57,248 nucleotides of DNA from Armatimonadota bacterium (GCA_016199525.1 JACQGL010000185.1:1-57248), one strand, 5' to 3'. Numbered from the stretch's first letter, positions 16,796 through 57,123 are shown. Numbers and translations are program-made. The notes: generated by a model not told the origin, from the sequence alone.

Positions 16796-17329
16796 TCATT
16801 CGTTTTCCGTCTCCCGTCCACCCCGTTCCGCAGTGGCGAGGCCGGCCACCATACAGCGCACATACTGAATCTGTCCGGTGTGGTAGAGGGTGTGCTCCAG
16901 GAGCATCTCAAACAGCTCCACCGGGCGGCACCGCCGCCCGTCCGCGCCCTGGCGGCGCCGGGCCAGCTCGGGATCGGTAAACCCCTCCAGAGCCGCCCGC
17001 ACGGCGGCGCACCCCTCATGGCAGAGCTGGCGGGCAGCCGCCAGATTGCCGCCCCGCCCGGCATAGCGCGCCTCGATGCGCTCCCAAGCCCAGGAGGCGT
17101 CGCCCAGGACACGGTTGATCTGGAACAGGTAGTCACCCCCAAGGTGGAAGAGGATCTCCCGGATCGAGCCGCGCATCCAGGAGAAGCCTGCGTAGGCAGG
17201 TGGAGTCCAGGCCGCTTCCTCCTCGGTGAGCCCGTCCAGAACGGCGCGCAGGGAGTGCCAGCGGCTGCCTTCCCAGGCCTGGTGGAATTGCCATAACAGG
17301 TGTTCGACCAGGGCGCGTGGTTCGCTCAT
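16796..17329 (-). CDS. DinB family protein
   Basis: Internal ATG (MSEPRALVEHLLWQF). Four-helix-bundle pattern with His residues (FHLGGD, EHTLYHTGQI) typical of DinB/YfiT. Confidence 0.75.
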   Translation of the reverse strand: MSEPRALVEHLLWQFHQAWEGSRWHSLRAVLDGLTEEEAAWTPPAYAGFSWMRGSIREILFHLGGDYLFQINRVLGDASWAWERIEARYAGRGGNLAAARQLCHEGCAAVRAALEGFTDPELARRRQGADGRRCRPVELFEMLLEHTLYHTGQIQYVRCMVAGLATAERGGRETENE

Positions 17330-17341
17330 TAATGTTGTCCA

Positions 17342-17361
17342 GTCCCGAAAGCTTTCGGGAC
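17342..17361. repeat. Perfect 20-nt palindrome GTCCCGAAAGCTTTCGGGAC
   Basis: Self-complementary. Lies between the folD stop and the DinB start (12 nt before the ATG). The 16-nt core CCCGAAAGCTTTCGGG recurs at 25215..25234. Confidence 0.7.
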
Positions 17362-17451
17362 GCGAACGAGGCAACGATGGGCGACGCATCTCCAAGCCTT
17401 GCGTTCGTCCCTTCGTTCCCTTATCCTGTGGTTCTGCCGGCCGCTGCCCCA

Positions 17452-18312
17452 TCAGGCGGATTTGAGGCCGGATTGCAGCGCCGCGGCGGTGAGCGTGCTC
17501 TTCATCAGCATGGTGATCGTCATCGGCCCCACGCCCCCCGGAACCGGCGTGATCGCGCCCGCCACGTGGCGCACCGTCTCGAAGTCCACATCGCCCACCA
17601 GGCGACCATTCTCGCGGTTGATGCCCACATCGATCACTACCGCGCCGGGGCGGACGTACTCATCGGTGACCATGCGGGCACGCCCGATGGCCACCACCAG
17701 CACCTCGGCGCGGCGGCAGACAGCGGGCAGATCACGCGTACGGGAGTGGCAGATGGTGACGGTGGCGTGCTCGTGCAGTAGGAGGAACGCTACCGGCTTC
17801 CCCACAATGTTGCTGCGGCCCACCACCACCGCTTCCTTCCCTTTCAACTCCACCCCCGCGCGCCGCAGAATTTCCATGATCCCTGCGGGAGTGCAGGGTG
17901 GCATCGGGGTGGGTCCCATCATCAGCCGTCCCAGGTTCATCGGGTGGAACCCGTCCACGTCCTTCTCGGGGGCTACCGCGCCCAGAACGCGGGCGGTGTT
18001 GATCGACTCCGGCAGCGGCAGCTGAACCAGGATGCCGTGCACCGCCGGATCATCGTTCAGCCGCCGAATGAGCGCCAGCACCTCCTCCTCGGGGGTGTCC
18101 CCGGCCAGGATATGGTCCCGCGAGGCAATCCCCAGCGACTGGGCGACGCGGAGCTTGCTACGGACATAGGTATGGGAGGCGGGGTTGTCTCCCACGAGCA
18201 GTACGGCGAGGCACGGATTGACGCCCTGCGATTGAAGATTCGTGACCTCGTCTTTCAAGTCGGCCTGGATTTGCGCCGAGATTTCCCGTCCGTCCAGAAT
18301 GACCGCTGCCAT
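17452..18312 (-). CDS. folD: Bifunctional methylenetetrahydrofolate dehydrogenase/cyclohydrolase
   Basis: 286 aa. MAAVILDGREISAQIQADLKDEV, PASHTYV..K, VQLPLP and GGVGPMTI motifs. Confidence 0.93.
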   Translation of the reverse strand: MAAVILDGREISAQIQADLKDEVTNLQSQGVNPCLAVLLVGDNPASHTYVRSKLRVAQSLGIASRDHILAGDTPEEEVLALIRRLNDDPAVHGILVQLPLPESINTARVLGAVAPEKDVDGFHPMNLGRLMMGPTPMPPCTPAGIMEILRRAGVELKGKEAVVVGRSNIVGKPVAFLLLHEHATVTICHSRTRDLPAVCRRAEVLVVAIGRARMVTDEYVRPGAVVIDVGINRENGRLVGDVDFETVRHVAGAITPVPGGVGPMTITMLMKSTLTAAALQSGLKSA

Positions 18313-23919: not shown

Positions 23920-25002
23920 CTAACCTTCGGCTGCCTCGACGATGGAAATAATCTCGGGTGCAACGTAGATACGTCCTCGCGCCTGGCCGGTTGCTTCTCT
24001 CAAGATACCCATCGCCTCAAGCTTGGCGACATTGAGAGACGCAGCCCGGTAAGTAACCTTGAGACTCCGTTGAGCCCGGGCCACCGTGATAGCGGGATAG
24101 GCAAACAAGTCATCTACTATCTGAAGCGGACGACTGGAAGAGCCGGAGGACTGAAGTCTGCGCCGATAATCCTGCCAGAGATCGAGCAGCCGCTGCGAAC
24201 GACGGATGGCGTCGTTCGACTGCTGCGCAACCCCTTGTAGGAAGAAGTGAATCCACGCCGCCCAGTCGCCCCGCTGACTGACCCGGAGGAGATGGTCCAT
24301 GTATGCCTGGCGATAACGCTCGAAGTAAGCACTGAGGTACAACAATGGGCCGGGGAGATGTTTCCTCTCGCATAGTTGCAGTACGATCAACAGCCGACCC
24401 ATACGGCCGTTGCCATCTCTGAAAGGGTGTATTGCCTCGAATTGATAGTGAACCAACGCGAGCTGGACCAGGACGGGTAGCTCGCTCTCGGACGTCATAG
24501 AACGCTCCAGATCCGCCAGGGTTTGGTCGAGCTCTGATGGCGGCGGCGGAATGAACCTCGCTTCTTCTACAGGTTGTCCCCGCTGAGCAATATAGTTTTG
24601 GGTGCGTCGGAACTCCCCGGGCTGGTGATCTTCACCCCGAACGCCGGCAAGCAATCGCTCGTGCACCTCCCGAATCAGCCGCAAGCATACGGGAAGGTCC
24701 TGCAAGCGTTTCAGGCCATATTCCATCGCCCGTACATAGTTGAATACCTCCCTGACATCAGTTGATTCTGGTTCGCTCGAGGGATCGACCTCAAACAAGA
24801 GTAGCTGCTCAAGACGAGCAATCGTGCCCTCGATGCGCGTCGACAGAACTGCCTCGTGCCGCAGAAACGGGCCAATAAGCAGATGTGGATTCGGCAGCAT
24901 CCTCCCGACGCCTGCCAGTTCGCCCAGGGCGCGTTCCGCTTGCGCGAGAAGCTTCACTGCTTGCAGGTTTAAGTCCAGCTTGGGCGGCAGGAGATCTGGC
25001 AC
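23920..25002 (-). CDS. Fic family protein (class II, N-terminal auto-inhibitory helix, C-terminal wHTH-like domain)
   Basis: Fic motif HPFRDGNGRMGRLL. Inhibitory motif S-T-R-I-E-G (SxxxEG) in LSTRIEGT. GTG start. GC content is visibly lower than the surroundings. Confidence 0.9.
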   Translation of the reverse strand: MPDLLPPKLDLNLQAVKLLAQAERALGELAGVGRMLPNPHLLIGPFLRHEAVLSTRIEGTIARLEQLLLFEVDPSSEPESTDVREVFNYVRAMEYGLKRLQDLPVCLRLIREVHERLLAGVRGEDHQPGEFRRTQNYIAQRGQPVEEARFIPPPPSELDQTLADLERSMTSESELPVLVQLALVHYQFEAIHPFRDGNGRMGRLLIVLQLCERKHLPGPLLYLSAYFERYRQAYMDHLLRVSQRGDWAAWIHFFLQGVAQQSNDAIRRSQRLLDLWQDYRRRLQSSGSSSRPLQIVDDLFAYPAITVARAQRSLKVTYRAASLNVAKLEAMGILREATGQARGRIYVAPEIISIVEAAEG

Positions 25003-25214
25003 GAAGGCCCATTACCCTTCCCGGGTCTTCACGAGCCTGCCAGGAGCGTCTCCGCTGAAGTCTGAGGGTTGCACCATCGGATCCACTGGTATGGATACCG
25101 GGGTATCATAACGGTAACCCGGTTATACTTTTCATATCGCAAGTATGATACGTCAATTCATATACATTGTATCATCGACGCTAACCGCCTCCGGTCTTCA
25201 GCCGTGAGGAGCCT

Positions 25215-25234
25215 GCCCCGAAAGCTTTCGGGGC
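25215..25234. repeat. Perfect 20-nt palindrome GCCCCGAAAGCTTTCGGGGC (terminator-like hairpin after the SLT gene)
   Basis: Self-complementary. Lies 70 nt 3-prime of the minus-strand stop at 25305. Shares a 16-nt core with 17342..17361. Confidence 0.7.
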
Positions 25235-25304
25235 CTGCAGGGACGCTCCTTCACTCCGAATGGGGCCCCTGGCAGCGCGGCCCAGAGGCGTAGAGGCGGC
25301 AGCC

Positions 25305-26948
25305 CTACCCCTCTGTTGCCCGGGGCGCCGGGCAATAGGCTGCCTGCTCCTCCCGGTAGGCGGGGTTGGGCACTACGTGGATCCGCTCGGGACCCAGGAT
25401 GCGCTCCACCAGCCAGTTGATCCGCTGCCCATCCGCCAGCCGGGACAGCGCGTAGAACAGCACCTTTCGGTCCCAGTCCCGCGCGGGCAAGCGCAGATCG
25501 AAGCACAGCCCTGTGGGGTGGTAGTCGAGGGTCGGCTCCCACTCGTTCGGATCGGTCCCTGGAGGCGGCACCTGGGGGAACTTCTCGTTGAGCGCGCGGG
25601 AATAGACCTCCGTGGAGGTCATGCCGATCACAGTGAGCGCGCCTTTCCCCCCATTGCGCCGGTAAAGGCGGGCCACGCGCAGCAGCGTCTCCATCGCCTC
25701 TGGGCGGAGGCCCTTGTACGTCCCCGCCTCCTTAGGGTCGAGAGGGGCCAGGTCAGCGGTGTGCAGTCCGAGGCGCTTCGCCGCTGGGGGAAGAGGGACC
25801 AGCTCTCGCCGTGCGTACGCCGCCCGCAGCGCCCCCTTATCCGCGAACGTCCACCGCTCGCGGTCGGGGTACCAGACCGCCTCGGTGCGTTGCCCGGGGC
25901 GCAAGGCTTCCCACTGCCGGCGGAACGCCGCGGGATCCCGCCGGTAAGCGGTGATGGCGCGCTCTGCCATCCGTACCTTCCACCAGTAGTAGCGGTGGTC
26001 GTCCGCGCGGCCATACAGGTAATTGAACACCGAAGGCGCCTCCAGCGGGGAGACCTGCAGGTAGAGGCGCTCGTAGGAGAGGCGGTTCGGACCCCGCAGC
26101 CGTGTCCGCACCCAGTCCGGCAGCAGACTCATGGAGCGAGAGCCGCGCACGAACAGATTGGCCGTGCGGTTCACGCCACCCTCGCCGCCATGGTAGGCCT
26201 GGAGCGCCCAGTCGAGACCCCCGTAGTGGCGGGCTAGGCGCAGCAGGTAGCGCGTCTGCGCGGCGATGGCGCGGGCCGGATCGAAGCGCTCGTCCCAGCG
26301 GCGGCGCTCCTGGTAGTCCTCCTCCCAGCGGCGCTGGTGGAACGCGCGCCACTGGTCCCGCGACCATGGAATGCCGCCCGCCCAATCGGGCGCAGGCTTG
26401 CAGAATGATTCCGGCTGGGCATCCAGCCAGCGGAGCGCCTCCCGGTGGCGCGCCATCCGGCGGGTGCAGGCACGAGCGGCGGCCTCGTTCACGCGCAAAC
26501 CGCACCGTCGCCCTGTACCCGCCAGAAACTGCGCCACCCCCACCGCGTTCGAGACGGAGATTGCATCCGGGTTGCCGCCCGATTCCAGCAATAGATCCGC
26601 CTCTTGCTTCGCCTGGAAGTAACGGCGGTAGGCATCTACGTCGGTACCCACCGCTGCGGCGAGCGCCCGCAGGTCGGTCTGGACCTCGGGGGAGCGGAGG
26701 ACGCGTTCAATCAGCGGGCTGATCTCTGCCACGATGCGTCGCACATCCCGCAGCGAGGTACGGCGGCCCATGATCCGTTTACGCTGGGATTCGATCAGCA
26801 GATCGATGGACGGCGAGAGTTCATCCAGCTCCCGCCCCGGGGCGGCAAAGGCGCTGGTCACCCCCTCTTCCCGGCTCGATCGGCACCCTCCCACCGCCAG
26901 AAGGGCGATGCCTGCCAGCACTCCACACACCACGCCAAATGACTTCAT
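25305..26948 (-). CDS. Lipoprotein with a lytic transglycosylase (SLT) domain and a C-terminal VanY/M15-like peptidase region
   Basis: Start at ATG 26948. Lipobox in MKSFGVVCGVLAGIALLAVGGC. SLT motifs ESGGNPDAISVSNAVGVAQF and AYHGGEGGV. The C-terminal YHPTGLCFDL and PERIHVVP resemble the HxxxxxxD...ExxH zinc ligands of M15 peptidases. Confidence 0.7.
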   Translation of the reverse strand: MKSFGVVCGVLAGIALLAVGGCRSSREEGVTSAFAAPGRELDELSPSIDLLIESQRKRIMGRRTSLRDVRRIVAEISPLIERVLRSPEVQTDLRALAAAVGTDVDAYRRYFQAKQEADLLLESGGNPDAISVSNAVGVAQFLAGTGRRCGLRVNEAAARACTRRMARHREALRWLDAQPESFCKPAPDWAGGIPWSRDQWRAFHQRRWEEDYQERRRWDERFDPARAIAAQTRYLLRLARHYGGLDWALQAYHGGEGGVNRTANLFVRGSRSMSLLPDWVRTRLRGPNRLSYERLYLQVSPLEAPSVFNYLYGRADDHRYYWWKVRMAERAITAYRRDPAAFRRQWEALRPGQRTEAVWYPDRERWTFADKGALRAAYARRELVPLPPAAKRLGLHTADLAPLDPKEAGTYKGLRPEAMETLLRVARLYRRNGGKGALTVIGMTSTEVYSRALNEKFPQVPPPGTDPNEWEPTLDYHPTGLCFDLRLPARDWDRKVLFYALSRLADGQRINWLVERILGPERIHVVPNPAYREEQAAYCPAPRATEG

Positions 26949-41095: not shown

Positions 41096-44014
41096 CTACT
41101 TGAACCGCGGCGGCTCCACACGGCGCACGAAAGGCAGCGCGATGAGCGCTTCCAGCCGTTCCACCGACAGGGTGCCCAGGAGGAGCTTGCCGGGGCGGAG
41201 GGTGGCCGCCAGCTCGAAACCAAGCGCCTGGAGCTGCTTCAGGCCGTCCGGGGGTAGCTCGTTGAGCCAGATCTGCACCCCAACGCGGCCGTTCACCACC
41301 TCCGGCAGGCCTGGCTGGCGCAGAGAGCCATTCACGCCGTGCTTGCACACTTGTTCCGCCAGGCGCTGCAGCGGGGGCGCCAGCTTGGCGCGGGCCAGCA
41401 GGGCGCGGCGCTGCTCCGGCTTCATCGCCTCCAGGCGCTTCAGCCCCTCCGGCGTGCCCGCGGCGATCTCCATCTCGCCCGAGGTGGCGGGCACGTCCAG
41501 GTCGAAGACGGCATCCGCCTGCCGGTTGGCACGGAAGCCGACGTTCAGCTGCCCGGTAATCCTGGGCAGCCGTCGCAGCTTAACTGGGGACGGCCCGGGA
41601 GGCCTCACGCCCCGCGGCGCCAGAGTGGCCGCAGGCGAGAAAGGCGCCGCCGTGGCTGCCGGCGGTGAGGCAGGGGCCCCCCCCATTCCGCCCGGCGCGC
41701 CCGCCCACCCGCCGGCATCCGTGACTATGTTGTGGCTTAATCTCATCTCCTTCGCCTCCAACAGGCGCGCCGCCTCTGCGCTCTCATCCCCGAAGATCCC
41801 CTCGTAGGAAACGCCCTCCGGCATCTCCACGGGCACGTCCACCGTGCGCTGGCGGCCGCCCACGTTGACTATCCGCTCCTCCACCGCCACGAAGGAGGTG
41901 TACTGGCTCATCAGGCGGTACTCCAGGGCCGTGGCGACGATCTGCTCCTGTACCTTCGGATCGGGCCGGCCGAGCTGCGCGCCCAGCCAGTCCTGCGACT
42001 GCAGCGCCTCGATCTTCTCCCGCGCCCAGAGAGTGGGGAGGGCGCTGTTCTCCTGCTGCACGGAGGGGAAGGAGACGTGGATCGTCTGGCTCCACGGCCG
42101 GCCGCGCAGGAGACCGTGCACGGTAATGTCTCCCTCTGCCGCCCTCGTGTAGCGTCCCTTCAGGATGAGGGGCCGGGCGCTGAACAGGTCGGGGAGGTGC
42201 TTCGGGTAGACTTCATCCACCGGTAGGCCGTGCCAATCCACTCCCACATCCAGCAACAGCGGGTGGGAGACGCGGCGATAGAACCGGGCGGCGGCTTCCT
42301 CACCCGGCGTGTTGAGGGTGACGAGCTCCGCCACCCCGCGCCCCTCCTTCGCCATCCCTTCGATCAGGAACCGGTTCACGGAGTTGCCGATGCCGAACGG
42401 GAACATCCGCGCCCGGCCGCGGTGCTTCCGGACGTAAGCGATGATCTGCATGTCGTTGCCGACATAGCCATCGGTCATGTAGCAGATCATCCGCAGGCGC
42501 TCGGGGTCATCGGGGAGGCGAAGGGCGTAGTCCACGGCCCTGAGGATGTCCGTGCCGCCCTCGCCCTCCAGCGGCTCCAGGAAGCGCATCGCCTTCGCCA
42601 CGTTTTCCGGCGTGTTGGGCACCGGCGCGGGGAAGCAGGGGTTGAGGTTCAGGTTGAAGCCGATGAGCTGGAAGGTGTCCCCCGGATTCAGGTGGCGGAT
42701 GCAGTAGCGCATCGTCTCCTTGGCCTTGCGGATCGGCCAGCCCATCTGGGAGCCGCTCTGATCAATGACGAACACCATCTCCTTGGCGGAGACCTGGCTC
42801 TGCGGCGGGGCTTGAGGCGGCTGGAGGATAAGGGTGAAGTAGCCGAACCCGTCCCCCACGGCGTGGGCCAGCACGCCCGTCTGGATCTCCGACCCCGCCA
42901 CCGCGTAGCGCAGGACGAAGTCTTTGTTGGGGAGCGTGTCCTGATTCTGCAATCGAATGATGCGCCGCGTGGGGCCGCTCGCTTCGGTGGCAATGGGATG
43001 GAGCTGCGAGCGCACGTCCTGCACAGGCAGGCCCGCGTCCAGGTTCACGGTGACAGAGATGTTGTGGCCCGTGCGTGTGGCGGGAGGGGTGATGGGCGGA
43101 GTGATCCGGTCCGCGTCGGTCACCACGGAGGTGGCGCCGGGGTCGCCTTCGATGGCCTGGGGCGGGCTGGGATCGCCGCGCTGGCCGGGCACCGTGTAGC
43201 CGCCGCCCGGCGTGAAGCGCGGCCCGACCACCATCGGGAAGGTGAACTCGTACTCGCCCTCATCGTACTTCAGCAGGTTAACATAGCTGATGACGACCGT
43301 GACCCTTTCGCCCGGCATGATGTTTGCCACCGACTGGGTGAAGATATTGGGCCGCTCCTGGTCGAGCAACGCAGCGGCCTGCCCGGCGGCTCTGGCGGCC
43401 TCGTAAATCTCCCGCGCCTCCTCCCGGCGCTTGATCTCTCCCCGGATGACACGGCTACCGATACTCATCGTCATCTCGTCTACCGCCGCATCTTCGGGCA
43501 ACGGGAAGGTGTAGACCGCCTCGACAGGCGCTTCGGTGGGGTTGTGGAACTCCTGCCTTAGCTGGACACGCGCCACGAACCCAGCGATATCCGCTATGAC
43601 GTCGGTGTGCTTAAGGGGGCACAGCCCGATCGCCTTGCCCTTATCGTCCACGATGGTGAGCTGCCCTGCCGTGGGCGCCTCTTCGGCGTAGGCGCTCCCC
43701 GAGCGCTTCTCGGACGACCACAGCGACCAGACGAGCAGCAGGCCCACTGCGGCGAATGGTACCAGCCGGTAGGATAGCCCTATCGTCCGATGCCACCGGG
43801 CGGCCCGGCTTGCGGCGGCGCGGCGCGCTACCGCGCTACCCGTCTGGCAGATCCTGGCGACGCGAACACGCAGCGCCCCCGGAGCGGTGGATAGTGGGAA
43901 GGCCGCCTGCATCAGACGGGCGAACTCGGGCGTGATGGGGTCGGCGTCCAGTGATGCGTCTTTCTGGGGGCGCCGGCGGCGAGCGCAGAGCAGGTTAGAG
44001 AGTCGGTCCCACAT
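41096..44014 (-). CDS. Single-pass membrane protein with extracytoplasmic VIT and von Willebrand A domains (candidate anti-sigma/sensor)
   Basis: ATG 44014 overlaps the sigma gene stop by 20 nt. ~80 aa cytoplasmic region, then TM LVPFAAVGLLLVWSLWS. VIT region (AVYTFPLPEDAAVDEMTM...). vWA MIDAS VIDQSGS. TSFVAVE motif. 972 aa. Confidence 0.8.
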   Translation of the reverse strand: MWDRLSNLLCARRRRPQKDASLDADPITPEFARLMQAAFPLSTAPGALRVRVARICQTGSAVARRAAASRAARWHRTIGLSYRLVPFAAVGLLLVWSLWSSEKRSGSAYAEEAPTAGQLTIVDDKGKAIGLCPLKHTDVIADIAGFVARVQLRQEFHNPTEAPVEAVYTFPLPEDAAVDEMTMSIGSRVIRGEIKRREEAREIYEAARAAGQAAALLDQERPNIFTQSVANIMPGERVTVVISYVNLLKYDEGEYEFTFPMVVGPRFTPGGGYTVPGQRGDPSPPQAIEGDPGATSVVTDADRITPPITPPATRTGHNISVTVNLDAGLPVQDVRSQLHPIATEASGPTRRIIRLQNQDTLPNKDFVLRYAVAGSEIQTGVLAHAVGDGFGYFTLILQPPQAPPQSQVSAKEMVFVIDQSGSQMGWPIRKAKETMRYCIRHLNPGDTFQLIGFNLNLNPCFPAPVPNTPENVAKAMRFLEPLEGEGGTDILRAVDYALRLPDDPERLRMICYMTDGYVGNDMQIIAYVRKHRGRARMFPFGIGNSVNRFLIEGMAKEGRGVAELVTLNTPGEEAAARFYRRVSHPLLLDVGVDWHGLPVDEVYPKHLPDLFSARPLILKGRYTRAAEGDITVHGLLRGRPWSQTIHVSFPSVQQENSALPTLWAREKIEALQSQDWLGAQLGRPDPKVQEQIVATALEYRLMSQYTSFVAVEERIVNVGGRQRTVDVPVEMPEGVSYEGIFGDESAEAARLLEAKEMRLSHNIVTDAGGWAGAPGGMGGAPASPPAATAAPFSPAATLAPRGVRPPGPSPVKLRRLPRITGQLNVGFRANRQADAVFDLDVPATSGEMEIAAGTPEGLKRLEAMKPEQRRALLARAKLAPPLQRLAEQVCKHGVNGSLRQPGLPEVVNGRVGVQIWLNELPPDGLKQLQALGFELAATLRPGKLLLGTLSVERLEALIALPFVRRVEPPRFK

Positions 44015-44651
44015 TGGCAGCCTCCGGCGCCAGACCAGGCGCATTGGGAGATGCGTCCTCGGCGGCCAGTCGTTCCAGCACCGTGCTCTTGGCGCGATGC
44101 AAGAGCGCTTTGACCGCGTTCTCGGAACGGCAGAGGAACCGCGCGATCTCTGCCAGGGAGAGCTGGTCCACGCAGCGCAGCCAGAGCGCCTCCCGCTGCG
44201 CCTCTGGCAGTTGCAGCACGAGGCGGCGGATGCACGCGATGGTCTCCTGGCGCTCCAGCTCGGCCTCCGGGCTGTCTGCCATCGCCCTTCCGGCGGCGAG
44301 TGCTGACGGACGGTCATCTGCCGCCGGCCCCCACAGATCGGCTTCCAGGACCTCGGGGCGCCGGCGGCGCCGGCGTGTGGCATCCAGCAGCTTGCGGCGC
44401 GCGATCCCGATCAGCCACGTGCTCACAGTTGCCTCCCCCCGGAAGCCATCGATGGAGGCGACTGCGGTGGCGAACACCTCGGCAGTGACATCCTCCGCTT
44501 CCTCCCGCCTGCGGCAGTGAACACAGACGTAAGCGTAGACGCGGTCCAGGGTAAGCCGCTGGAGTCGATCCCAGGCCCATTCCTCCCGATGTTTCAGGGC
44601 GCGCACCCAGTCTGCGTCTGTCACGCTGGAGGAATCTCGCAGCTCGATCAC
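43995..44651 (-). CDS. ECF-type RNA polymerase sigma-70 factor
   Basis: Region 2 (AEDVTAEVFATAVASIDGFRGEATVSTWLIGIARRKLLD) and region 4 (LSLAEIARFLCRSENAVKALLHRA). GTG start after GGAAGGAG. Confidence 0.85.
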   Translation of the reverse strand: MIELRDSSSVTDADWVRALKHREEWAWDRLQRLTLDRVYAYVCVHCRRREEAEDVTAEVFATAVASIDGFRGEATVSTWLIGIARRKLLDATRRRRRRPEVLEADLWGPAADDRPSALAAGRAMADSPEAELERQETIACIRRLVLQLPEAQREALWLRCVDQLSLAEIARFLCRSENAVKALLHRAKSTVLERLAAEDASPNAPGLAPEAANVGPTL

Positions 44652-49254: not shown

Positions 49255-50799
49255 TCACAACAGCCGCAGCCCGCGGGGGATGGCCACCCGATCCATAAGG
49301 TCGAAGACCCACTGCACGAGCAGTGCCAGCAGGGCGGCCGGAATCGCGCCGTGCAGGATGATGTTCGGATCGTTCAGGGTCAGGCCTGTGCTGATTCGTT
49401 CCCCAAAACCGCCCGCGCCGATGAACGCTGCCAGGGTCGCCGTACCGACGTTGATCACCGCGGACGTCTTGATCCCTGCCAGAATGGTTCGGGACGCCAT
49501 CGGCAGGCGGATCAGGAAAAGCTGGGCGAGTGAGGACAGCCCCAGCGCCGCAGCGGACTCCCGCAAAGGCGGCGGCATCTCCTCCAGTCCCGTATAGGTG
49601 TTGCGCACGATCGGCAGCAGGCTGTAGAGGAATAGCGCTGCCAGTGCGGGAACCGGCCCCGTGCCCATCACCGGGATGAAAAAGCAGAGCAGCGCCAGCG
49701 AGGGAATCGTCTGGATCAGACCGGTCAGGGAGAGCACCGTCTGCGCCAGCATCCGCGAGTGAGTGGCCAGAATGCCCATCGGAATGCCGACCAGGATGGC
49801 CAGCGCCAGCGACACGAGCACTAGATAGAGGTGCTGGGGGCCCTGGACGCGGATCGCCTGCCAGGTGCCGCGCGCCAGCTGGGCCAGCTCGTGACGCAGT
49901 GACTGGCGAGCGGCCTCGGGGCTCGGGGCGGCGGTGAGCGCAAGCCCGTTAGTGACGAATTCCTGCGCCACCTGGGCAAACGGCAGGCCGTCCAGCTCCG
50001 CACGGCCGTTCAACTCGATCATCGTTGCCTCATTCAGCCGGCCGGCCAGCGACTGGAGCTTCTGCCAGGTGCGGGGATAACGCTGCGGGAGTGAGTCGCG
50101 GTAGAGGAAGACGGCCTGGTAGGGCGGAAAGAAGCGCCGGTCATCTTCGAGCACCCGCAGGTGGTACTTCTTGAGCTTGGCGTCCGTGGTGTAGACATCC
50201 ATCACGTCGATGGCGCCCCGCTGGATCGCCTCGTACGCCAGCCCGTGGTCCAGGCCCTGCACGTGCGGCATCTGCAGGCGGTAGTGCGCCACCAGCCCGG
50301 GCCATCCATCTTGGCGACCGAGAAACTCGTGGCTCAGGCCCACCCTCAGTTCGGGGTGGCGTGCCAGGTCCGAGACGGTGCGCAGGTTCAGACGCTCCGC
50401 CAGGGCGGCGGGCACAGCCAGGGCGTACTTGTTCTCGAATCCCAGCGGATCGCTGATCCCGATCCCCCGCGGCGCGAGCGCGCGGCGGAGCGTCTCCAGA
50501 TCCGGGCGTCCGCTACTCTTCAGGATCGCCTCCGCGATAGTGCCGGTGTATTCCGGGTAGAGATCGATCGAGCCCTGTTCGAGCGCTCGGAAGACGATCG
50601 CCGTGGCGCCCAGCCCCTGCTCGTGCGTGACCGGCGCCTCCCCGGTGGCGCGGGCCAGAGCGACAGCGATTTCGCCCAGAATGAATGATTCCGTGAAGCG
50701 CTTAGAGCCGACCCGTAACGGCGGCTTCTCTTGTGCGTGGACCGGGCTACCGGAGACCAGGATCAGGCTGGCGAGGATCAGGTAGAACGCGCGTCTCAT
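49255..50799 (-). CDS. Betaine/choline/carnitine-type ABC transporter, fused substrate-binding domain (N-terminal) and permease (C-terminal)
   Basis: Signal peptide. OpuAC-type binding domain (GSKRFTESFILGEI...LYPEYTGTI) followed by an OpuBB/OpuCB-like permease (IQTIPSLALL...LPIVRNT...). The start overlaps the ATPase stop as ATGA. Confidence 0.85.
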   Translation of the reverse strand: MRRAFYLILASLILVSGSPVHAQEKPPLRVGSKRFTESFILGEIAVALARATGEAPVTHEQGLGATAIVFRALEQGSIDLYPEYTGTIAEAILKSSGRPDLETLRRALAPRGIGISDPLGFENKYALAVPAALAERLNLRTVSDLARHPELRVGLSHEFLGRQDGWPGLVAHYRLQMPHVQGLDHGLAYEAIQRGAIDVMDVYTTDAKLKKYHLRVLEDDRRFFPPYQAVFLYRDSLPQRYPRTWQKLQSLAGRLNEATMIELNGRAELDGLPFAQVAQEFVTNGLALTAAPSPEAARQSLRHELAQLARGTWQAIRVQGPQHLYLVLVSLALAILVGIPMGILATHSRMLAQTVLSLTGLIQTIPSLALLCFFIPVMGTGPVPALAALFLYSLLPIVRNTYTGLEEMPPPLRESAAALGLSSLAQLFLIRLPMASRTILAGIKTSAVINVGTATLAAFIGAGGFGERISTGLTLNDPNIILHGAIPAALLALLVQWVFDLMDRVAIPRGLRLL

Positions 50800-51548
50800 A
50801 ACCGCCTTTCCGCGTCCTCCACCCAGAGCCGCCGCTGGGCGCGGATGAACTCGGCCACGAACGGGTCGGCGGGCCGCTCAAGCAGGTCGCGCGCGCTGCC
50901 CCGCTGGAGGATCACGCCGTCGCGCATCAGAGCGATCTCGTCGCCCAGGTAGGCAGCTTCGCCCATATCGTGGGTGACCAGGAGCACCGTCTTCTTGAGG
51001 CGCTGGAAGATCTGCTTCAGGTCCTCCTGGAGTCGGGAGCGGATAATCGGATCGAGTGCGCCGAGCGGCTCGTCCATCAGCAGCACTTCCGGATCGAGCA
51101 TCAGGGCGCGCATCAGCCCCACGCGCTGTCGCTGCCCGCCGCTCAGTTGCACCGGGTAGCGGTTCAGCAGCTCCAGCGGCAGCTGCGTGAGTTCAGCCAG
51201 CTCTGCCAGCCGCTTCCGCAGCCGCTCCCGCTCCCATCCCAGGTGGCGCGCCATGAGGGTAACGTTTCCCGCCGCCGTCAGGTGGGGGAAGAGGCCGCCG
51301 TCCTGGATCACATAGCCCATACGCAGGCGGAGGGCGCGGCACGTCTGCGGCGTCATCGGCGTGTCACCGATCTTAATGCGTCCGGAATCCGGCGTGATCA
51401 GACCGGCTACGAGGCGTAGCAGTGTGGATTTCCCGCACCCGCTCGGGCCGATAAGGACCTGGCAGCGTTCCGGCGCCAGGTCCAGCGTGGTGTGAGCCAG
51501 GGCTATCTTCCCGTCGTAGCTCTTGCTGATGTCTTCCAGCGTGATCAC
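50796..51548 (-). CDS. ABC transporter ATP-binding protein (250 aa, no CBS tail)
   Basis: Walker A GPSGCGKST, signature LSGGQRQRV, Walker B LLMDEP. Confidence 0.9.
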   Translation of the reverse strand: MITLEDISKSYDGKIALAHTTLDLAPERCQVLIGPSGCGKSTLLRLVAGLITPDSGRIKIGDTPMTPQTCRALRLRMGYVIQDGGLFPHLTAAGNVTLMARHLGWERERLRKRLAELAELTQLPLELLNRYPVQLSGGQRQRVGLMRALMLDPEVLLMDEPLGALDPIIRSRLQEDLKQIFQRLKKTVLLVTHDMGEAAYLGDEIALMRDGVILQRGSARDLLERPADPFVAEFIRAQRRLWVEDAERRL

Positions 51549-51774: not shown

Positions 51775-53103
51775 TTGCTACCGATGACCAATCCGGATCC
51801 CTTGTCCCCCGCTCAGCTCGCCGAAGCCGTGTTTGACGCCCGCGAGCGCACCTGGGAGCTGGTCGCCGACCTCACCGACGAGCAGTTGATGGGGCCGCGA
51901 CTGGCGATCATCAATCCCCTGCTGTGGGAGATCGGCCACGTGGCGTGGTTTCAGGAGAAGTGGGTCCTGCGCCACGGCGGCGCGCTGCCGTCCATTCGTG
52001 CCGATGCGGACGCGCTTTACGATTCGATGGCGATCCCCCACGACATCCGGTGGGACCTGCCGCTGCCTTCCCGTAAGGAGACGCTAGCCTATCTGCGGGC
52101 CGTGCGCAGCGGCGTGCTGATGCGAATCGGCCGGGGTGATCTGACGAAGGAGGAAGCTTACTTCATCCTGCTGGCCGCCTTCCACGAGGATATGCACACA
52201 GAAGCGTTCACTTATACCCGGCAAACCCTGGGCTACCCGGCGCCACGCCTCTTTGTTCCCCCCGCCGACACGGCGGACGTCGCCGGGGGTGGGCCGTTGC
52301 CGGGCGACGCCGCCATCCCAGGGGGCAGATTTCTGCTGGGGGCCACACCGGACGAGCCGTTCGTATTTGATAACGAGAAGTGGGCGCATCCTGTGGAGGT
52401 GCCGCCGTTCGCCATCGCCCGCGCGGCAGTCACCCAATCTGAGTTCGCGGCGTTTGTGGCCGACAGCGGCTATCGCCGGCGGGAGCTGTGGCGCGAAGAG
52501 GGCTGGCGGTGGCGCCAGTCGGTGGGTGCGGAGCACCCGGTCTACTGGCGACGCGATTCCGCAGGGAACTGGGAGCGACGGGATTTCGATCGCTGGGTGC
52601 CGCTGGAGCCGCAGCGTCCCGTTCTCCACGTCTGCTGGTACGAGGCAGATGCCTACTGCCGCTGGTCGGGCCGGCGACTGCCCACAGAGGCGGAGTGGGA
52701 AATGGCGGCCGCCGCCGATCCCACCCCGGACGGCCGCGGCATCACCGCGCGCCAGCGTCGCTTCCCCTGGGGCGATGCGCCTCCCACTCCCGAGCGCGCC
52801 AACCTGGACTGGCAGGCTATGGGGTGCCTGGACGTGGGCGCCCTGCCCGCGGGCGATAGCGCCTTCGGCTGTCGCCAGATGATCGGCAACGTCTGGGAGT
52901 GGACGAGCAGCGAGTTCGGTCCCTACCCGGGATTTGTGGCAGATCCGTACAAGGAGTACTCCGAGCCGTGGTTCAAAACGCACCAGGTGCTGCGCGGCGG
53001 CGGCTGGATGACGCGCTCCCGCCTGCTCCGCAATACCTGGCGTAACTTCTACCGGCCGGATCGACGAGACGTCTGGGCAGGTTTCCGCACCTGCGCCCTG
53101 TAG
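51775..53103 (+). CDS. senA: EgtB-fold C-S/C-Se bond-forming sulfoxide/selenoxide synthase; by context selenoneine synthase SenA-like
   Basis: DinB_2-like N-domain (PLLWEIGHVAWFQEKW, FHEDMHTEAF) plus an FGE-sulfatase domain (GNVWEWTSSEFGPYPGF...VLRGGGW...AGFRTC). Followed 1 nt later by the SenB-like gene. Start is TTG 51775 or ATG 51784. Confidence 0.7.
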   Translation: MLPMTNPDPLSPAQLAEAVFDARERTWELVADLTDEQLMGPRLAIINPLLWEIGHVAWFQEKWVLRHGGALPSIRADADALYDSMAIPHDIRWDLPLPSRKETLAYLRAVRSGVLMRIGRGDLTKEEAYFILLAAFHEDMHTEAFTYTRQTLGYPAPRLFVPPADTADVAGGGPLPGDAAIPGGRFLLGATPDEPFVFDNEKWAHPVEVPPFAIARAAVTQSEFAAFVADSGYRRRELWREEGWRWRQSVGAEHPVYWRRDSAGNWERRDFDRWVPLEPQRPVLHVCWYEADAYCRWSGRRLPTEAEWEMAAAADPTPDGRGITARQRRFPWGDAPPTPERANLDWQAMGCLDVGALPAGDSAFGCRQMIGNVWEWTSSEFGPYPGFVADPYKEYSEPWFKTHQVLRGGGWMTRSRLLRNTWRNFYRPDRRDVWAGFRTCAL

Positions 53104-53104
53104 A

Positions 53105-54136
53105 ATGAAGATCCGTATCATCACCCCCGCGCCACCCCGCTCCCGGAAGGGCAACCGGGTGACTGCTCTCCGGTGGGCCCGCATCCTGCGGGCGCTGGGC
53201 CATCACGTGGAGATCGAGCAGCAGTACCAGGGTGGGTGGTGCGACCTGCTGGTGGCCCTCCACGCCCGCCGCAGCTTTGCCTCCATCCGCCATTTCCGGT
53301 GCGAGCACCCGCAGTTACCCCTGATCGTCGCCCTGACGGGAACAGACGTCTACCAGGATCTACGCACCAGTCCGCTGGCCCGGCAGTCGCTGGAGATGGC
53401 GACACGGCTGATCGTGCTGCAGCCGCTGGCAATTGCCGAGATTCCGGAGCGCGTGCGCCCGAAGGCCCGCGTCATCTATCAATCCGCAGAGCCGATACGA
53501 CGGCGGGCAGCGCCGGCGAAGAGTACGTTTGATGTGTGCGTTCTGGGCCACCTTCGCCCTGTGAAGGATCCGTTCCGCACCGCGCTGGCGGCCCGGCTGC
53601 TGCCCGCCTCTTCGCGCCTCCAGGTGCTTCAGGTGGGGGCGGCGCTCAGCCAGGAGATGGCGGAACGCGCCCGTACGGAGGCGGCGTGCAATCCGCGCTA
53701 CCGCTGGCTGGGGGAGCTACCCCGCTGGCGGGCGCGGCACACGCTGGCGCGCAGCCGGCTTCTCGTTCTCACATCCAAGCTGGAGGGCGGCGCAAACGTG
53801 GTCTCCGAGGCCCTGGCCGCCGCCGTACCGGTCCTTTCCTCGCGCATCCCCGGCTCGGTGGGAATCCTTGGGGAGGAGTACCCGGGATACTTCCCGTTCG
53901 GAGAAGCGCGTCTGCTGGCGGCACTGCTGCACCGCGCGGAGACAGACACAGGCTTCTACGAGGAGCTCCGCGCCTGGTGCCAGCGGCTGGCGCCGCTCAT
54001 TGATCCCGCCCGCGAGCGGCAATCCTGGGAAAGCCTGCTGCGGGAACTCTCCCCACGAGAGGCCAGGCCGGGGCAGCCGCAGTTGCGCGGCGCCGGGCCG
54101 TCCTGTCCTTTGCCTGGTTTTCCGACGTCACCCTAA
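53105..54136 (+). CDS. senB: GT-B glycosyltransferase, selenosugar synthase SenB-like
   Basis: MKIRIITPAPPRSRKGNRVTALRWARILRALGHHV N-terminus, a GT1/GT4-like C-terminal half (EGGANVVSEALAAAVPVL), and a position between the EgtB-like and EgtD genes. Confidence 0.6.
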   Translation: MKIRIITPAPPRSRKGNRVTALRWARILRALGHHVEIEQQYQGGWCDLLVALHARRSFASIRHFRCEHPQLPLIVALTGTDVYQDLRTSPLARQSLEMATRLIVLQPLAIAEIPERVRPKARVIYQSAEPIRRRAAPAKSTFDVCVLGHLRPVKDPFRTALAARLLPASSRLQVLQVGAALSQEMAERARTEAACNPRYRWLGELPRWRARHTLARSRLLVLTSKLEGGANVVSEALAAAVPVLSSRIPGSVGILGEEYPGYFPFGEARLLAALLHRAETDTGFYEELRAWCQRLAPLIDPARERQSWESLLRELSPREARPGQPQLRGAGPSCPLPGFPTSP

Positions 54137-54142
54137 GAACCA

Positions 54143-55138
54143 ATGCCAACCGCCAGAACGCTCAAGCGCCCCGAGCTGATCGCCGATAACCCCGACGAAC
54201 ACCTGGCCGCGTTCGCCCGCGATGTGGCCGCGGGGCTGACCGCGCATCCCAAGTGCCTTTCGTGCTGCTACTTCTACGACCATCAGGGGTCGCTGCTCTT
54301 TGAAGAAATCTGCCAACTAGAGGAGTACTACCTCACCCGCGCGGAGCGGGAGATCCTGCTGGCACGCGCCGCCGAGATCGCCGCGCTCTTCCCCGGGGAG
54401 ATCGCCCTCGTGGAACTGGGCAGCGGGAGCGCCACGAAGACGCGCATCCTCATCGAGGCGTTCCTGCGCCAACGTGGCGCGTTGCGCTACGTGCCGGTGG
54501 ACATCTCCCGCACAATGTTGGAGGAAAGCACCCTGGCGTTGCGGGACGAGTACCCGGAACTGGAGATCGTGGCCGTAGCGGCGGAATATACTCAGGGACT
54601 TCGCCATCTGGCGGCGGAGTCCGCTCGCCCGAAGCTGGTCCTCTGGCTGGGATCAAACATCGGTAACTTCGATCGGCCAGAAGCGGCCCGCTTTCTGCGC
54701 CAGGTACGGGAAACCATGGCGCCCTGTGATCGGCTGCTGGTCGGCGTTGATCTGCGCAAAGAGGCCGTCGTTCTGGAGCGTGCCTATGATGATGCGCGCG
54801 GCGTTACGGCCCAGTTCAATCTGAACCTGCTTGCCCGCATCAACCGCGAGATGGGCGGGCACTTCGATCTTGCCATGTTCCGGCACCGGGCTCTCTACGA
54901 CGAGGAGATGGGTCGCGTGGAGATGTATCTGGATAGCCTCGTCGACCAGCAGGTACGCATCGACCGCCTTGGCCTGGAGGTGTCGTTCGCCGCCGGCGAA
55001 CCAATCCATACCGAGAACTCCTATAAGTACTCCGGTGAGGAAATCCAGGCCCTGGCCCGGAGCGCCGGGGTGCGGATCGAGCGCCAGTGGTTCGATGGCG
55101 CGCGCCGCTTCAGCGTGAATCTGCTGGCGCCGGAGTGA
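54143..55138 (+). CDS. egtD: L-histidine N-alpha-methyltransferase (hercynine synthase)
   Basis: Alignable by eye over its full length to mycobacterial EgtD: YFYD..GS.LFE.I..L.EYY.TR.E, LVELGSGSATKTR, LGSNIGNF, AYDDARGVTAQFNLN, ENSYKY. Confidence 0.9.
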   Translation: MPTARTLKRPELIADNPDEHLAAFARDVAAGLTAHPKCLSCCYFYDHQGSLLFEEICQLEEYYLTRAEREILLARAAEIAALFPGEIALVELGSGSATKTRILIEAFLRQRGALRYVPVDISRTMLEESTLALRDEYPELEIVAVAAEYTQGLRHLAAESARPKLVLWLGSNIGNFDRPEAARFLRQVRETMAPCDRLLVGVDLRKEAVVLERAYDDARGVTAQFNLNLLARINREMGGHFDLAMFRHRALYDEEMGRVEMYLDSLVDQQVRIDRLGLEVSFAAGEPIHTENSYKYSGEEIQALARSAGVRIERQWFDGARRFSVNLLAPE

Positions 55139-55209: not shown

Positions 55210-56250
55210 TCATCCGCCCGTGTTAAGCGCCACCACATCCGGTCGGAGCACGCACTCGAGCGGCTGGCCCGCGAAGAAACGCTGGAAGTCCGCCACCAGG
55301 AGCTCAGCCATCCGGTTGCGCGCATCCTGGTTGCGGCCGGCGATATGGGGGTAATGAACCACGTTGGCACGGCCGCGCAGGAGGTCGTCCGCGGGCAGGG
55401 GCTCGACGTCGAATACGTCCGCGCCCAGGTAGATCTCATTCGCGAGGACCCGCTGCCGCACCGCCGCCATATCGACGGGAAACGCGCGCGTGATCAGCAC
55501 CAGGATGCTGCCGCGCGGCAGCAGCTGCACACGCCGCGCGTCGAGCAGGCCCTTGCTGCTTGGATTGGGTGGCACGCAGACTGCCACCAGCTGGGAGGAG
55601 GAAAGGAGCTCGTCCAGCGCCATCTGCTCTACGCTGGCGGCGGCGAACACCTCGTCGGGGACGAAGGGGTCGTAGGCGAAGGTGCGCGTGGGGAAGGCGG
55701 AAAGCAGGCGCGCCAGGGCTCGTCCGATGGCGCCGAGCCCCACCAGCCCCACCCGTTTGCCCGCCAGTTCCCCGTTCACGAACGCCGGGTTGTCGCTGAA
55801 CTGACCCCCTGGCCAGCGCCCTCCGTCCGCTCCCGTGGCCAGAAGGGTGTGCCACCACGCGCTTTGCCGGAGGCAGGCAAGCATCAGACTCAGGCCCGTT
55901 TCCGCCACGCTCTGCGCCCAGCCCCGCGTGGTATCCACCAGAGGTACGCCGCGCGCCTGAAGAGACCTATAATCCACCCGGTAGGCGCGGTTATCGAAGA
56001 TGCCCCCCACCAGCCGGAGCCGGGGCGCGGCGGCAACGCAATCCGCAGTGAGCCGCCCCGCATAAAGGGCGATCGCGTCCACGTCTGCCAGCGGCAGAAT
56101 CTGTGACAGCACGGCGTTCTCCTGGCCGGTTAGGTCCAGCAGCCGGATGTCACCCAGCGGCGCCAGTCCAGTGCGCAGGCGGGGCAGGAATGTTTCGCCC
56201 CACTCGGAGGCGGTGCCTGTGCTGCAGGAGATCAGGATGTTGGTTTCCAT
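55210..56250 (-). CDS. D-isomer-specific 2-hydroxyacid dehydrogenase family protein
   Basis: NAD motif GKRVGLVGLGAIGRALARLL. A catalytic-type R...E...H arrangement (ITRAF, ...HIAG). Confidence 0.85.
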   Translation of the reverse strand: METNILISCSTGTASEWGETFLPRLRTGLAPLGDIRLLDLTGQENAVLSQILPLADVDAIALYAGRLTADCVAAAPRLRLVGGIFDNRAYRVDYRSLQARGVPLVDTTRGWAQSVAETGLSLMLACLRQSAWWHTLLATGADGGRWPGGQFSDNPAFVNGELAGKRVGLVGLGAIGRALARLLSAFPTRTFAYDPFVPDEVFAAASVEQMALDELLSSSQLVAVCVPPNPSSKGLLDARRVQLLPRGSILVLITRAFPVDMAAVRQRVLANEIYLGADVFDVEPLPADDLLRGRANVVHYPHIAGRNQDARNRMAELLVADFQRFFAGQPLECVLRPDVVALNTGG

Positions 56251-56580
56251 TCTGGTAAGCCCTCAGGTTTGCAGGGCTAGTTTCCACGCTGCCGCCGTGC
56301 CGTCCTTCCGGACGGGCCACCCGGGTACGCGCCTGCGAGCGCCGCGCCGGAGCCGACGTGGTAATCCCTCATCAGGCGGAACCAGATGGCCCCAGCGGCG
56401 TCTGAGTAGTGACGGACATCGCGCGGCTTCGGATCGCCGGATCCGCCGGGCGGTCTGCCCGCAGGCTCGGCGTGCGCGGGAGGGTTCGTGTCTGCGGCCA
56501 CGCGGCCGGTAAGGGATACCTGCACGGGCGACTTCAGGGGGCGGTATCCATTGAGGTTCAACGAACGGAGGAAGCGGCAC

Positions 56581-57123
56581 ATGCGTAGTGCACTGCGGTG
56601 GGTGATGGCCGCCGCGTTCATCATTCTCCTCGGGTCGCCGGCCCGCGCGCAGGTCACCCAGCCCGAACTGGAAAAGAAACTGCTCCCGGTGGGCGATCCC
56701 GCGCCGGACTTCGATCTGCCCCAGGTCGGCGGCGATCGGGTGCGGCTGTCCGAGTTGACCCGGAAGAACGTGGTGCTGGTGACCTTCTGGTTCTATGGGT
56801 GTGAGGCCTGCCGGACCGAGTTTCCGCACCTGCAGAAGATGTACGATGAGCTCAAGGCCAGGGGTTTGGAAGTGGTGGCCATCAACGCCATCGACAGCCG
56901 CGAGCGGATCGAATCCTACCAGCAGGAAGGCAAATTCACGTTCCGACTGCTCCAGGCGCCGCGCGCCGATGGCCAGCCGGTGTCCGAGGTGGTGAAGAAA
57001 TACCGCGTCTCTGCCTACCCCACAAACTACCTCATTGGCAAGGATGGGAAGGTGCTGGCGCGCTTCGTGGGCTTCAACGAGAAAGCCGTTCGGGACGCCA
57101 TCGAGCGGGCGGGGGTCAAGTAG
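56581..57123 (+). CDS. TlpA/ResA-like periplasmic thiol-disulfide oxidoreductase
   Basis: Internal ATG. Signal peptide MRSALRWVMAAAFIILLGSPARA. Thioredoxin-fold FWFYGCEACRTEFP with CxxC. Confidence 0.85.
   Translation: MRSALRWVMAAAFIILLGSPARAQVTQPELEKKLLPVGDPAPDFDLPQVGGDRVRLSELTRKNVVLVTFWFYGCEACRTEFPHLQKMYDELKARGLEVVAINAIDSRERIESYQQEGKFTFRLLQAPRADGQPVSEVVKKYRVSAYPTNYLIGKDGKVLARFVGFNEKAVRDAIERAGVK

Follow-up and report, generated by a model that had tools for sequence, protein, structure and literature searches.

A senA-senB-egtD operon of an Armatimonadota bacterium predicted to direct selenoneine biosynthesis

What do three adjoining genes make that encode, in this order, a protein with EgtB architecture, a glycosyltransferase, and the histidine methyltransferase EgtD? 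The genes in question, here denoted senA, senB, and egtD, lie near one end of a 57,248-nucleotide (nt) contig from an Armatimonadota bacterium (GCA_016199525.1, JACQGL010000185.1:1-57248; this whole stretch is hereafter the window), and an earlier reading of this DNA (the original prediction) had proposed that they form a sen-type cluster producing selenoneine. Selenoneine is among the few known selenium-containing small molecules that come from dedicated pathways. To our knowledge, all characterized producers are cultured proteobacteria or actinomycetes. The analysis described here supports the proposal: senA-senB-egtD is most probably a three-gene selenoneine biosynthetic operon, with the gene for selenophosphate synthesis (selD/senC) presumed to reside elsewhere in the genome. 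The three genes are as follows:

51775..53103, + strand: senA, open reading frame (ORF) of 442 amino acids (aa) from a TTG at 51775; probable start at the ATG at 51784, giving 439 aa
53105..54136, + strand: senB, 343 aa, N-terminus MKIRIITPAPPRSRKGNRVTALRWARIL, TIGR04348 family
54143..55138, + strand: egtD, 331 aa, TIGR03438, Methyltransf_33

The senA/senB junction reads TAG-A-ATG, with 1 nt between the genes, and the senB/egtD junction reads TAA-GAACCA-ATG, with 6 nt between them, so that the ORF listing reproduced exactly the same-strand arrangement and the gaps described previously. This spacing suggests co-transcription and coupled translation of the trio. Third-position GC is 0.80-0.81 in all three ORFs, which is typical of real genes (contig GC, 67%). 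The ATG at 51784 is likely to be the start of senA, rather than the TTG at 51775, because a public protein collection contains the 439-aa product. On the other side, egtD faces a convergent gene for a 2-hydroxyacid dehydrogenase (55210-56250, - strand) across 71 nt, and the transcription unit therefore ends at egtD. Promoter/terminator, tRNA, and Rfam scans of the window returned nothing informative.

The domain composition of the three proteins agrees with what had been noticed by eye. SenA combines the Pfam domains DinB_2 and FGE-sulfatase, the EgtB-like architecture, and contains the motifs GNVWEWT (residues 371-377) and RGGGW (407-411). SenB contains the Glycos_transf_1 domain and begins MKIRIITPAPPRSRKGNRVTALRWARIL, and EgtD matches Methyltransf_33 nearly end to end (model positions 1-302 of 304). 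The E-values of the model matches of the trio range from 1e-112 to 1e-158, far beyond chance.

The distinction between SenA and EgtB was made with a pair of family models. The first gene product scored 526.3 bits against the NCBIfam SenA model NF041186 (cut-off, 420; model positions 4-382 of 382) and 342.3 bits against the EgtB model TIGR03440, under the cut-off of 360. That these models discriminate is apparent from related loci (referred to here by L numbers): the L026 enzyme scored 365 bits with EgtB and 307 with SenA, and the sulfoxide synthases of L030-L032 passed the EgtB model (561-581 bits) and failed the SenA model (344-367 bits), whereas the enzymes of L016 and L025 showed the reverse pattern, passing SenA (526-536 bits) and failing EgtB.

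The same conclusion follows at the level of individual residues. In all SenA proteins, the thiol-binding residues Arg87 and Asp416 of EgtB are replaced by His and Phe/Tyr, respectively (Kayrouz et al. 2022, bioRxiv 10.1101/2022.04.13.486033). Alignment to EgtB of Mycolicibacterium thermoresistibile (4x8b, in which chain numbering is native + 1) placed H89 and Y426 of the window SenA in the R87 and D416 columns; V. paradoxus (Variovorax paradoxus) SenA carries H and F at these positions, and the EgtBs of L026 and L030-L032 have Arg at the R87 position. The iron triad (H55/H137/H141) and the active-site Tyr392 are retained, and the hercynine motif is Y395/N424/F425. Among the 120 closest homologues, the first signature position is His in every case, the second is Tyr or Phe in 119, and the Y/N/F motif is common to all. 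Several close homologues carry the NCBI name SenA, older records being named EgtB or ‘iron(II)-dependent oxidoreductase’; one homologue, 75% identical, is labelled Armatimonadota. Among named matches, the QueA encoded on the contig is most similar (about 66%) to proteins of Armatimonadota MAGs, with other metagenomic proteins reaching 74%; assignment to this phylum on such grounds is tentative. In a neighbor-joining (NJ) tree, built from 422 columns with 100 bootstraps and meant only as a rough check, the window SenA fell inside a clade of proteins with the SenA motif (96% support) that included the enzymes of L003, L005, L015, and L022, all of which adjoin both senB and selD. OvsA was the sister of this clade (100% support), followed by V. 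paradoxus SenA, with the Arg-bearing EgtBs outside. Grouping with EgtBs that use cysteine or gamma-glutamylcysteine was an outcome that the original prediction had named as fatal to itself; the scores (526 against 420 and 342 against 360), the His/Tyr pair, and the 96% clade all place the enzyme apart from them.

The second gene product, for which a position among generic GT4 glycosyltransferases had been another feared outcome, is a SenB. It scored 407.5 bits against TIGR04348 (cut-off, 300), its top matches in the Protein Data Bank (PDB) are the SenB structures 8jjq and 8fbx (224 bits), and alignment to 8jjq showed that the functional residues are kept. The sugar-selectivity residues N17/T20/E227 correspond to N20/T23/E231 of V. 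paradoxus SenB, and T78/T80 in the selenophosphate pocket correspond to T83/T85. Likewise, H53/D81 match H58/D86, R151/V153 match R155/V157, and the ribose contact E235 matches E239. K154 is equivalent to V. paradoxus K158, the residue shown to drive cleavage of the Se-P bond. The best match to this protein in the genome scan is 65% identical.

The third gene product scored 375.8 bits against the EgtD model TIGR03438 (cut-off, 290.9) and 234 bits, over its whole length, against M. smegmatis EgtD structures. All 10 pocket residues (Y45, F53, Y62, G170, N175, Y215, T222, M261, E291, and S293) are the same as those aligned with them in 4uy6; these counterparts are the residues that we take to form the M. 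smegmatis pocket, Y39, F47, Y56, G161, N166, Y206, T213, M252, E282, and S284.

By homology to the reconstituted pathway of V. paradoxus, the three enzymes would act as follows. EgtD would trimethylate L-histidine with S-adenosylmethionine, yielding hercynine. SenB would combine selenophosphate with a UDP-sugar (UDP-GlcNAc or UDP-Glc), with hydrolysis of the Se-P bond, into a 1-seleno-beta-sugar. SenA, a non-heme-iron selenoxide synthase that depends on O2 and Fe(II), would then link this selenosugar to C2 of the hercynine imidazole, and the resulting selenoxide would eliminate spontaneously to selenoneine. Thus, the SenA, SenB, and EgtD models, together with residue conservation, bear out a sen-type cluster whose predicted product is selenoneine. 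Because the contig contains no selD/senC, the source of selenophosphate is presumed to lie elsewhere in the genome.

The locus belongs to the known sen pathway, in a clade whose usual third gene is egtD rather than senC, and does not constitute a novel type of cluster: close homologues are already called SenA by NCBI, and co-localization of egtD was published in 2022. The description of egtD as ‘hard-wired’ into the operon accordingly stands as far as the gene arrangement is concerned and falls as a claim of novelty, given that Kayrouz et al. 2022 had described co-localized egtD in some sen clusters. The window shares with the sen cluster of V. paradoxus and Amycolatopsis palatopharyngis (Kayrouz et al. 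2022) the SenA signature, the functional residues of SenB, and the adjacency of senA and senB. In contrast to that cluster, which has senC, the window lacks senC/selD in the cluster and on the contig and has egtD as an integral third gene; compared with the V. paradoxus proteins, its SenA is a long form with an additional loop of ~55 residues, and its SenB, which has EGGANV in place of EGGAHV, shares about 45-50% identity. The type I ergothioneine enzymes (M. thermoresistibile EgtB, 4x8b; M. smegmatis EgtD, 4pim/4uy6) resemble those of the window in fold, Fe triad, and hercynine-binding Tyr and Asn, and the window EgtD is orthologous to the M. smegmatis enzyme, with an identical pocket. The type I pathway differs in the residues replaced by the His/Tyr pair, and the window differs from it further in the sub-cut-off EgtB score and in the selenium glycosyltransferase partner. 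No egtA, egtC, or egtE was found near the trio.

Several observations weigh against a selenoneine operon. The 57 kb contig carries neither senC nor selD: Pfam scans of ~40 probable genes, picked by third-position GC, detected no AIRS or AIRS_C domain, and no selA, selB, or selU was found among the scanned genes. A tblastn search with SelD probes (E. coli SelD, serving as a probe only, and L022 SelD) found none in the window; such a probe detected selD in L003, L005, L014, L015, and L022. The tRNA scan found zero tRNA genes on the contig and hence no tRNA-Sec. Within the close SenA clade (contexts of relatives with a SenA at least 68% identical to that of the window), selD is linked in one of the eight distinct contexts, and egtD in all eight. 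Moreover, L016/L017 and L025 contain senA and egtD, with no senB in reach (within the 7-10 kb read to either side in L016 and L025, L017 being a shorter version of the L016 context), and the dependence of the clade on SenB and SelD is thus assumed. The single His-to-Asn change that turns the SenB motif EGGAHV into EGGANV also counts on this side, as does the fact that the clade is known from its genes and not from product chemistry.

The genomic contexts of relatives help to put the missing selD in perspective. The senA-senB-egtD arrangement recurs in four distinct contexts (L018/L019, L020, L021, and L023/L024), none of which has selD within 10 kb; in L001, the order is egtD ... senA-senB, and in L022, selD adjoins senA-senB, with egtD 5 kb off. 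For 827 of the 2,353 TIGR04348 loci, homologues of both egtB and selD were found within 5 kb (Kayrouz et al. 2022), so that selD lies that near to no more than about one-third of them, and ovs genes that are split across the chromosome still make ovoselenol (Kayrouz et al. 2024, bioRxiv 10.1101/2024.04.10.588772). On both grounds, an unlinked selD appears to be the normal state. Across several lineages, the trio is 60-75% identical, a degree of conservation that implies purifying selection on each of its genes.

Some of these contexts have features of their own. In L016 (10001-12323), L017 (4482-6804), and L025 (7770-11323), a gene for a SenA-model-positive enzyme (526-536 bits, SenA motif) lies beside egtD; either senB is located elsewhere in the L016 and L025 genomes, or the clade can use another selenium donor. 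In L022 (8723-12270 of an 8.08 Mb contig), selD is divergent from senA, and the gene call for senB is split into two fragments (138 and 179 aa), although tblastn aligns senB in a single piece at 66% identity. The L022 selD is flanked by a phosphonate-binding-type ABC system that may be the ‘selenate transporter’ type of Kayrouz et al. In L018, L020, and L023, an Aminotran_5 gene close to the trio was considered as an EgtE-like or selenocysteine-lyase partner and rejected, being SerC.

A sequence search of solved structures revealed a relative that the original prediction had not considered and that had to be excluded before its selenoneine reading, which held, could be accepted. The best PDB matches of the window SenA are OvsA structures (346-356 bits, full length), ahead of type I EgtB (277 bits) and V. 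paradoxus SenA, which aligned in two pieces (232 bits). OvsA acts on free histidine, selenylating it at C5, and the substitutions M401Y/Q430N/A431F turn it into a SenA-like enzyme that uses hercynine and selenylates C2; the enzyme that partners it, OvsM, is an N-pi-methyltransferase of the ovothiol type, and egtD is absent from most ovs organisms (Kayrouz et al. 2024). The low score and rank of V. paradoxus SenA are accounted for by the absence from that enzyme of a segment of ~55 residues (window 52717-52884, about residues 315-370 of the window SenA) that OvsA and EgtB have in common. The signature residues of V. paradoxus SenA are the same as the window set (H ... Y, Y ... N, F, F). The ovs cluster (Kayrouz et al. 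2024), which comprises ovsA, ovsM, and senB/senC homologues and is almost confined to aquatic gammaproteobacteria, thus resembles the window in that OvsA is the closest solved structure, in the long loop, and in the use of a SenB-made selenosugar. It differs in having M/Q/A (histidine, C5) instead of Y/N/F (hercynine, C2) and OvsM (N-pi) instead of EgtD (N-alpha).

An ovoselenol-type cluster, in which the first enzyme would be OvsA-like and selenylate C5 of free histidine and the third would be a follow-up methyltransferase, was suggested by this PDB ranking and by the fully supported sister position of OvsA in the NJ tree. We consider it extremely unlikely and rejected it: Y395/N424/F425 occupy the M401/Q430/A431 columns, so that the histidine motif of OvsA is not there, and it is the YNF triple mutant of OvsA that behaves as a SenA; the variant structure (8ux5, 356 bits) even outscores the wild type (8u41, 346 bits) against the window SenA. 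Furthermore, the third gene encodes a full EgtD equivalog of the Methyltransf_33 family with an intact histidine N-alpha pocket, not an OvsM-type protein, and the low score of V. paradoxus SenA is traced to its absent loop. Hardly more credible is an ordinary ergothioneine cluster, made up of an EgtB that uses cysteine or gamma-Glu-Cys, EgtD, and an unrelated GT4 enzyme. The shared architecture, an EgtB score just 18 bits below the cut-off, the EgtB names in older annotations of close homologues, and the lack of a nearby selD are compatible with this alternative, which we nevertheless regard as very improbable: the protein fails the EgtB model and passes the SenA model by >100 bits, R87 and D416 are replaced, the putative GT4 enzyme passes the SenB equivalog model with SenB-specific residues kept, and the true EgtBs of L026 and L030-L032, with Arg at R87, fall outside the clade of the window enzyme.

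Two further alternatives accept the family assignments and concern the supply of selenium. If the genome had no selD, SenB and SenA could draw on another chalcogen donor, such as a thiosugar, and the product would be ergothioneine or a glycosylated hercynyl sulfoxide. The absence of selD from the contig and from the neighborhoods of most close relatives fits this scenario, as does the slow turnover of thioglucose by V. paradoxus SenA. Yet thioglucose is a very poor substrate of that enzyme, the reaction stalls at the sulfoxide with no ergothioneine formed, and SenC makes no thiophosphate from sulfide; these properties make a selenium-free route unlikely, and the conserved selenophosphate-pocket residues of SenB, the generally low linkage of selD to TIGR04348 loci, and the functional split ovs clusters reduce its probability to a small one. 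Alternatively, the operon might be intact and idle with respect to selenium, effectively producing hercynine only, with senA and senB as remnants. This would also agree with the lack of selD on the contig, but three full-length ORFs with conserved catalytic residues, and the signs of purifying selection across several lineages, make such decay quite improbable. A selenoneine operon supplied by an unlinked selD/senC accordingly remains the reading that we prefer.

A two-gene importer lies next to senA and is divergent from it:

50796..51548, - strand: ABC ATPase (Pfam ABC_tran), divergent from senA with 226-235 nt of intergenic sequence; 4-nt overlap with the next gene
49255..50799, - strand: fused N-terminal solute-binding domain (SBD) and permease (Pfam OpuAC and BPD_transp_1), with a ProX-type betaine pocket

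This importer may serve the cluster as an accessory. The best NCBIfam match of the ATPase is the proV-type betaine/proline/choline ATPase, below the cut-off, and the best PDB match of the binding domain is EgtUC (163 bits, compared with about 140 for other betaine binders). The S. pneumoniae importer EgtUV (7txl; Zhang et al. 2022, PMC9732360) resembles that of the window in being a type I importer with SBD and permease in one chain and an F-III betaine fold; the window protein keeps the EgtU cage (N, Y, Y, Y) as well as the carboxylate/imidazole contacts (K, T, E, R). The determinants of ergothioneine specificity in EgtU are G244, F293, and Y337 (Zhang et al. 2022). In the window, these positions are F35, Y84, and F121, respectively, the pattern of the glycine-betaine-binding ProX of A. 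fulgidus. The binding domain is C-terminal in EgtU, which occurs in non-producing Firmicutes, and N-terminal in the window importer, which lies beside egtD in producers. The three specificity residues and the reversed domain order rule out an EgtU orthologue.

The linkage of this importer to histidine-betaine genes is recurrent. In L025 (11416-13655), senA is directly followed by the ATPase and SBD-permease genes, with egtD upstream; in L026 (2709-5224), egtD and a true EgtB gene are followed by an ATPase 82% identical to that of the window and an SBD-permease 73% identical. The transporters of L030 (2190-4894), L031 (7156-9527), and L032 (7198-9467) are 44-48% identical and each is flanked by EgtD and a strong EgtB, and in L003, a permease fragment ends 160 nt before egtD. 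Altogether, the importer is found beside egtD and EgtB/SenA in seven contexts (the window, L003, L025, L026, and L030-L032) at 44-100% identity. Homologues that are ~63% identical adjoin proS in L027-L029, with no egt or sen genes. The pocket residues were considered as a marker of the cluster-linked transporters and discarded, being the same in linked and unlinked family members. A search of the available literature for transporters in egt/sen clusters found no description of this linkage, which is not proof of novelty. A combined scenario, in which the trio works in selD-less genomes on a chalcogen donor that does not come from SelD and the ProX-type importer, of a class distinct from EgtU, is dedicated to the histidine betaines of the producers (hercynine, ergothioneine, or selenoneine), appears improbable.

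Other genes of the window can be mentioned briefly. A stand-alone protein of the DinB_2 superfamily (16796-17452, - strand; 218 aa) has the fold of the N-terminal domain of SenA/EgtB; its gene is 35 kb from the operon and has no apparent link to it. About 1.3 kb downstream of egtD, a gene at 56488-57123 (+ strand) encodes a thiol-disulfide oxidoreductase resembling TlpA/ResA, in which a hydrophobic segment at the N-terminus and a CEAC motif were noted. This protein showed weak, sub-threshold matches to redox families related to selenoproteins (WAxxUGC, SelL-related), with Cys and not Sec, and the gene is not conserved beside the trio in relatives. A Fic/DOC protein with a helix-turn-helix (HTH) domain (23920-25002, - strand) is encoded in the stretch of lowest GC (24001-26000; 0.62, against about 0.67) and may have been acquired horizontally. 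Finally, an ECF-type sigma-70 gene (43995-44651, - strand) overlaps the start of the gene for a 1,095-aa protein with VIT and VWA domains (41096-44383, - strand); the ECF sigma factor may be paired with this large anti-sigma-like or surface protein.

Compact senA-senB-egtD loci are common in uncultured soil and sediment lineages, namely Armatimonadota-like bacteria, Acidobacteriota, Methylomirabilales, and Nitrospinota. The trio would be self-sufficient for hercynine and not for selenophosphate, and its long-form SenA resembles OvsA more closely than it does V. paradoxus SenA. These assignments could be of use for correcting database records that name such proteins EgtB or ‘iron(II)-dependent oxidoreductase’ and for picking enzymes for selenoneine production. 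The recurrent linkage of the importer, which is maybe the more original lead, suggests a transport step tied to the histidine-betaine metabolism of the producers.

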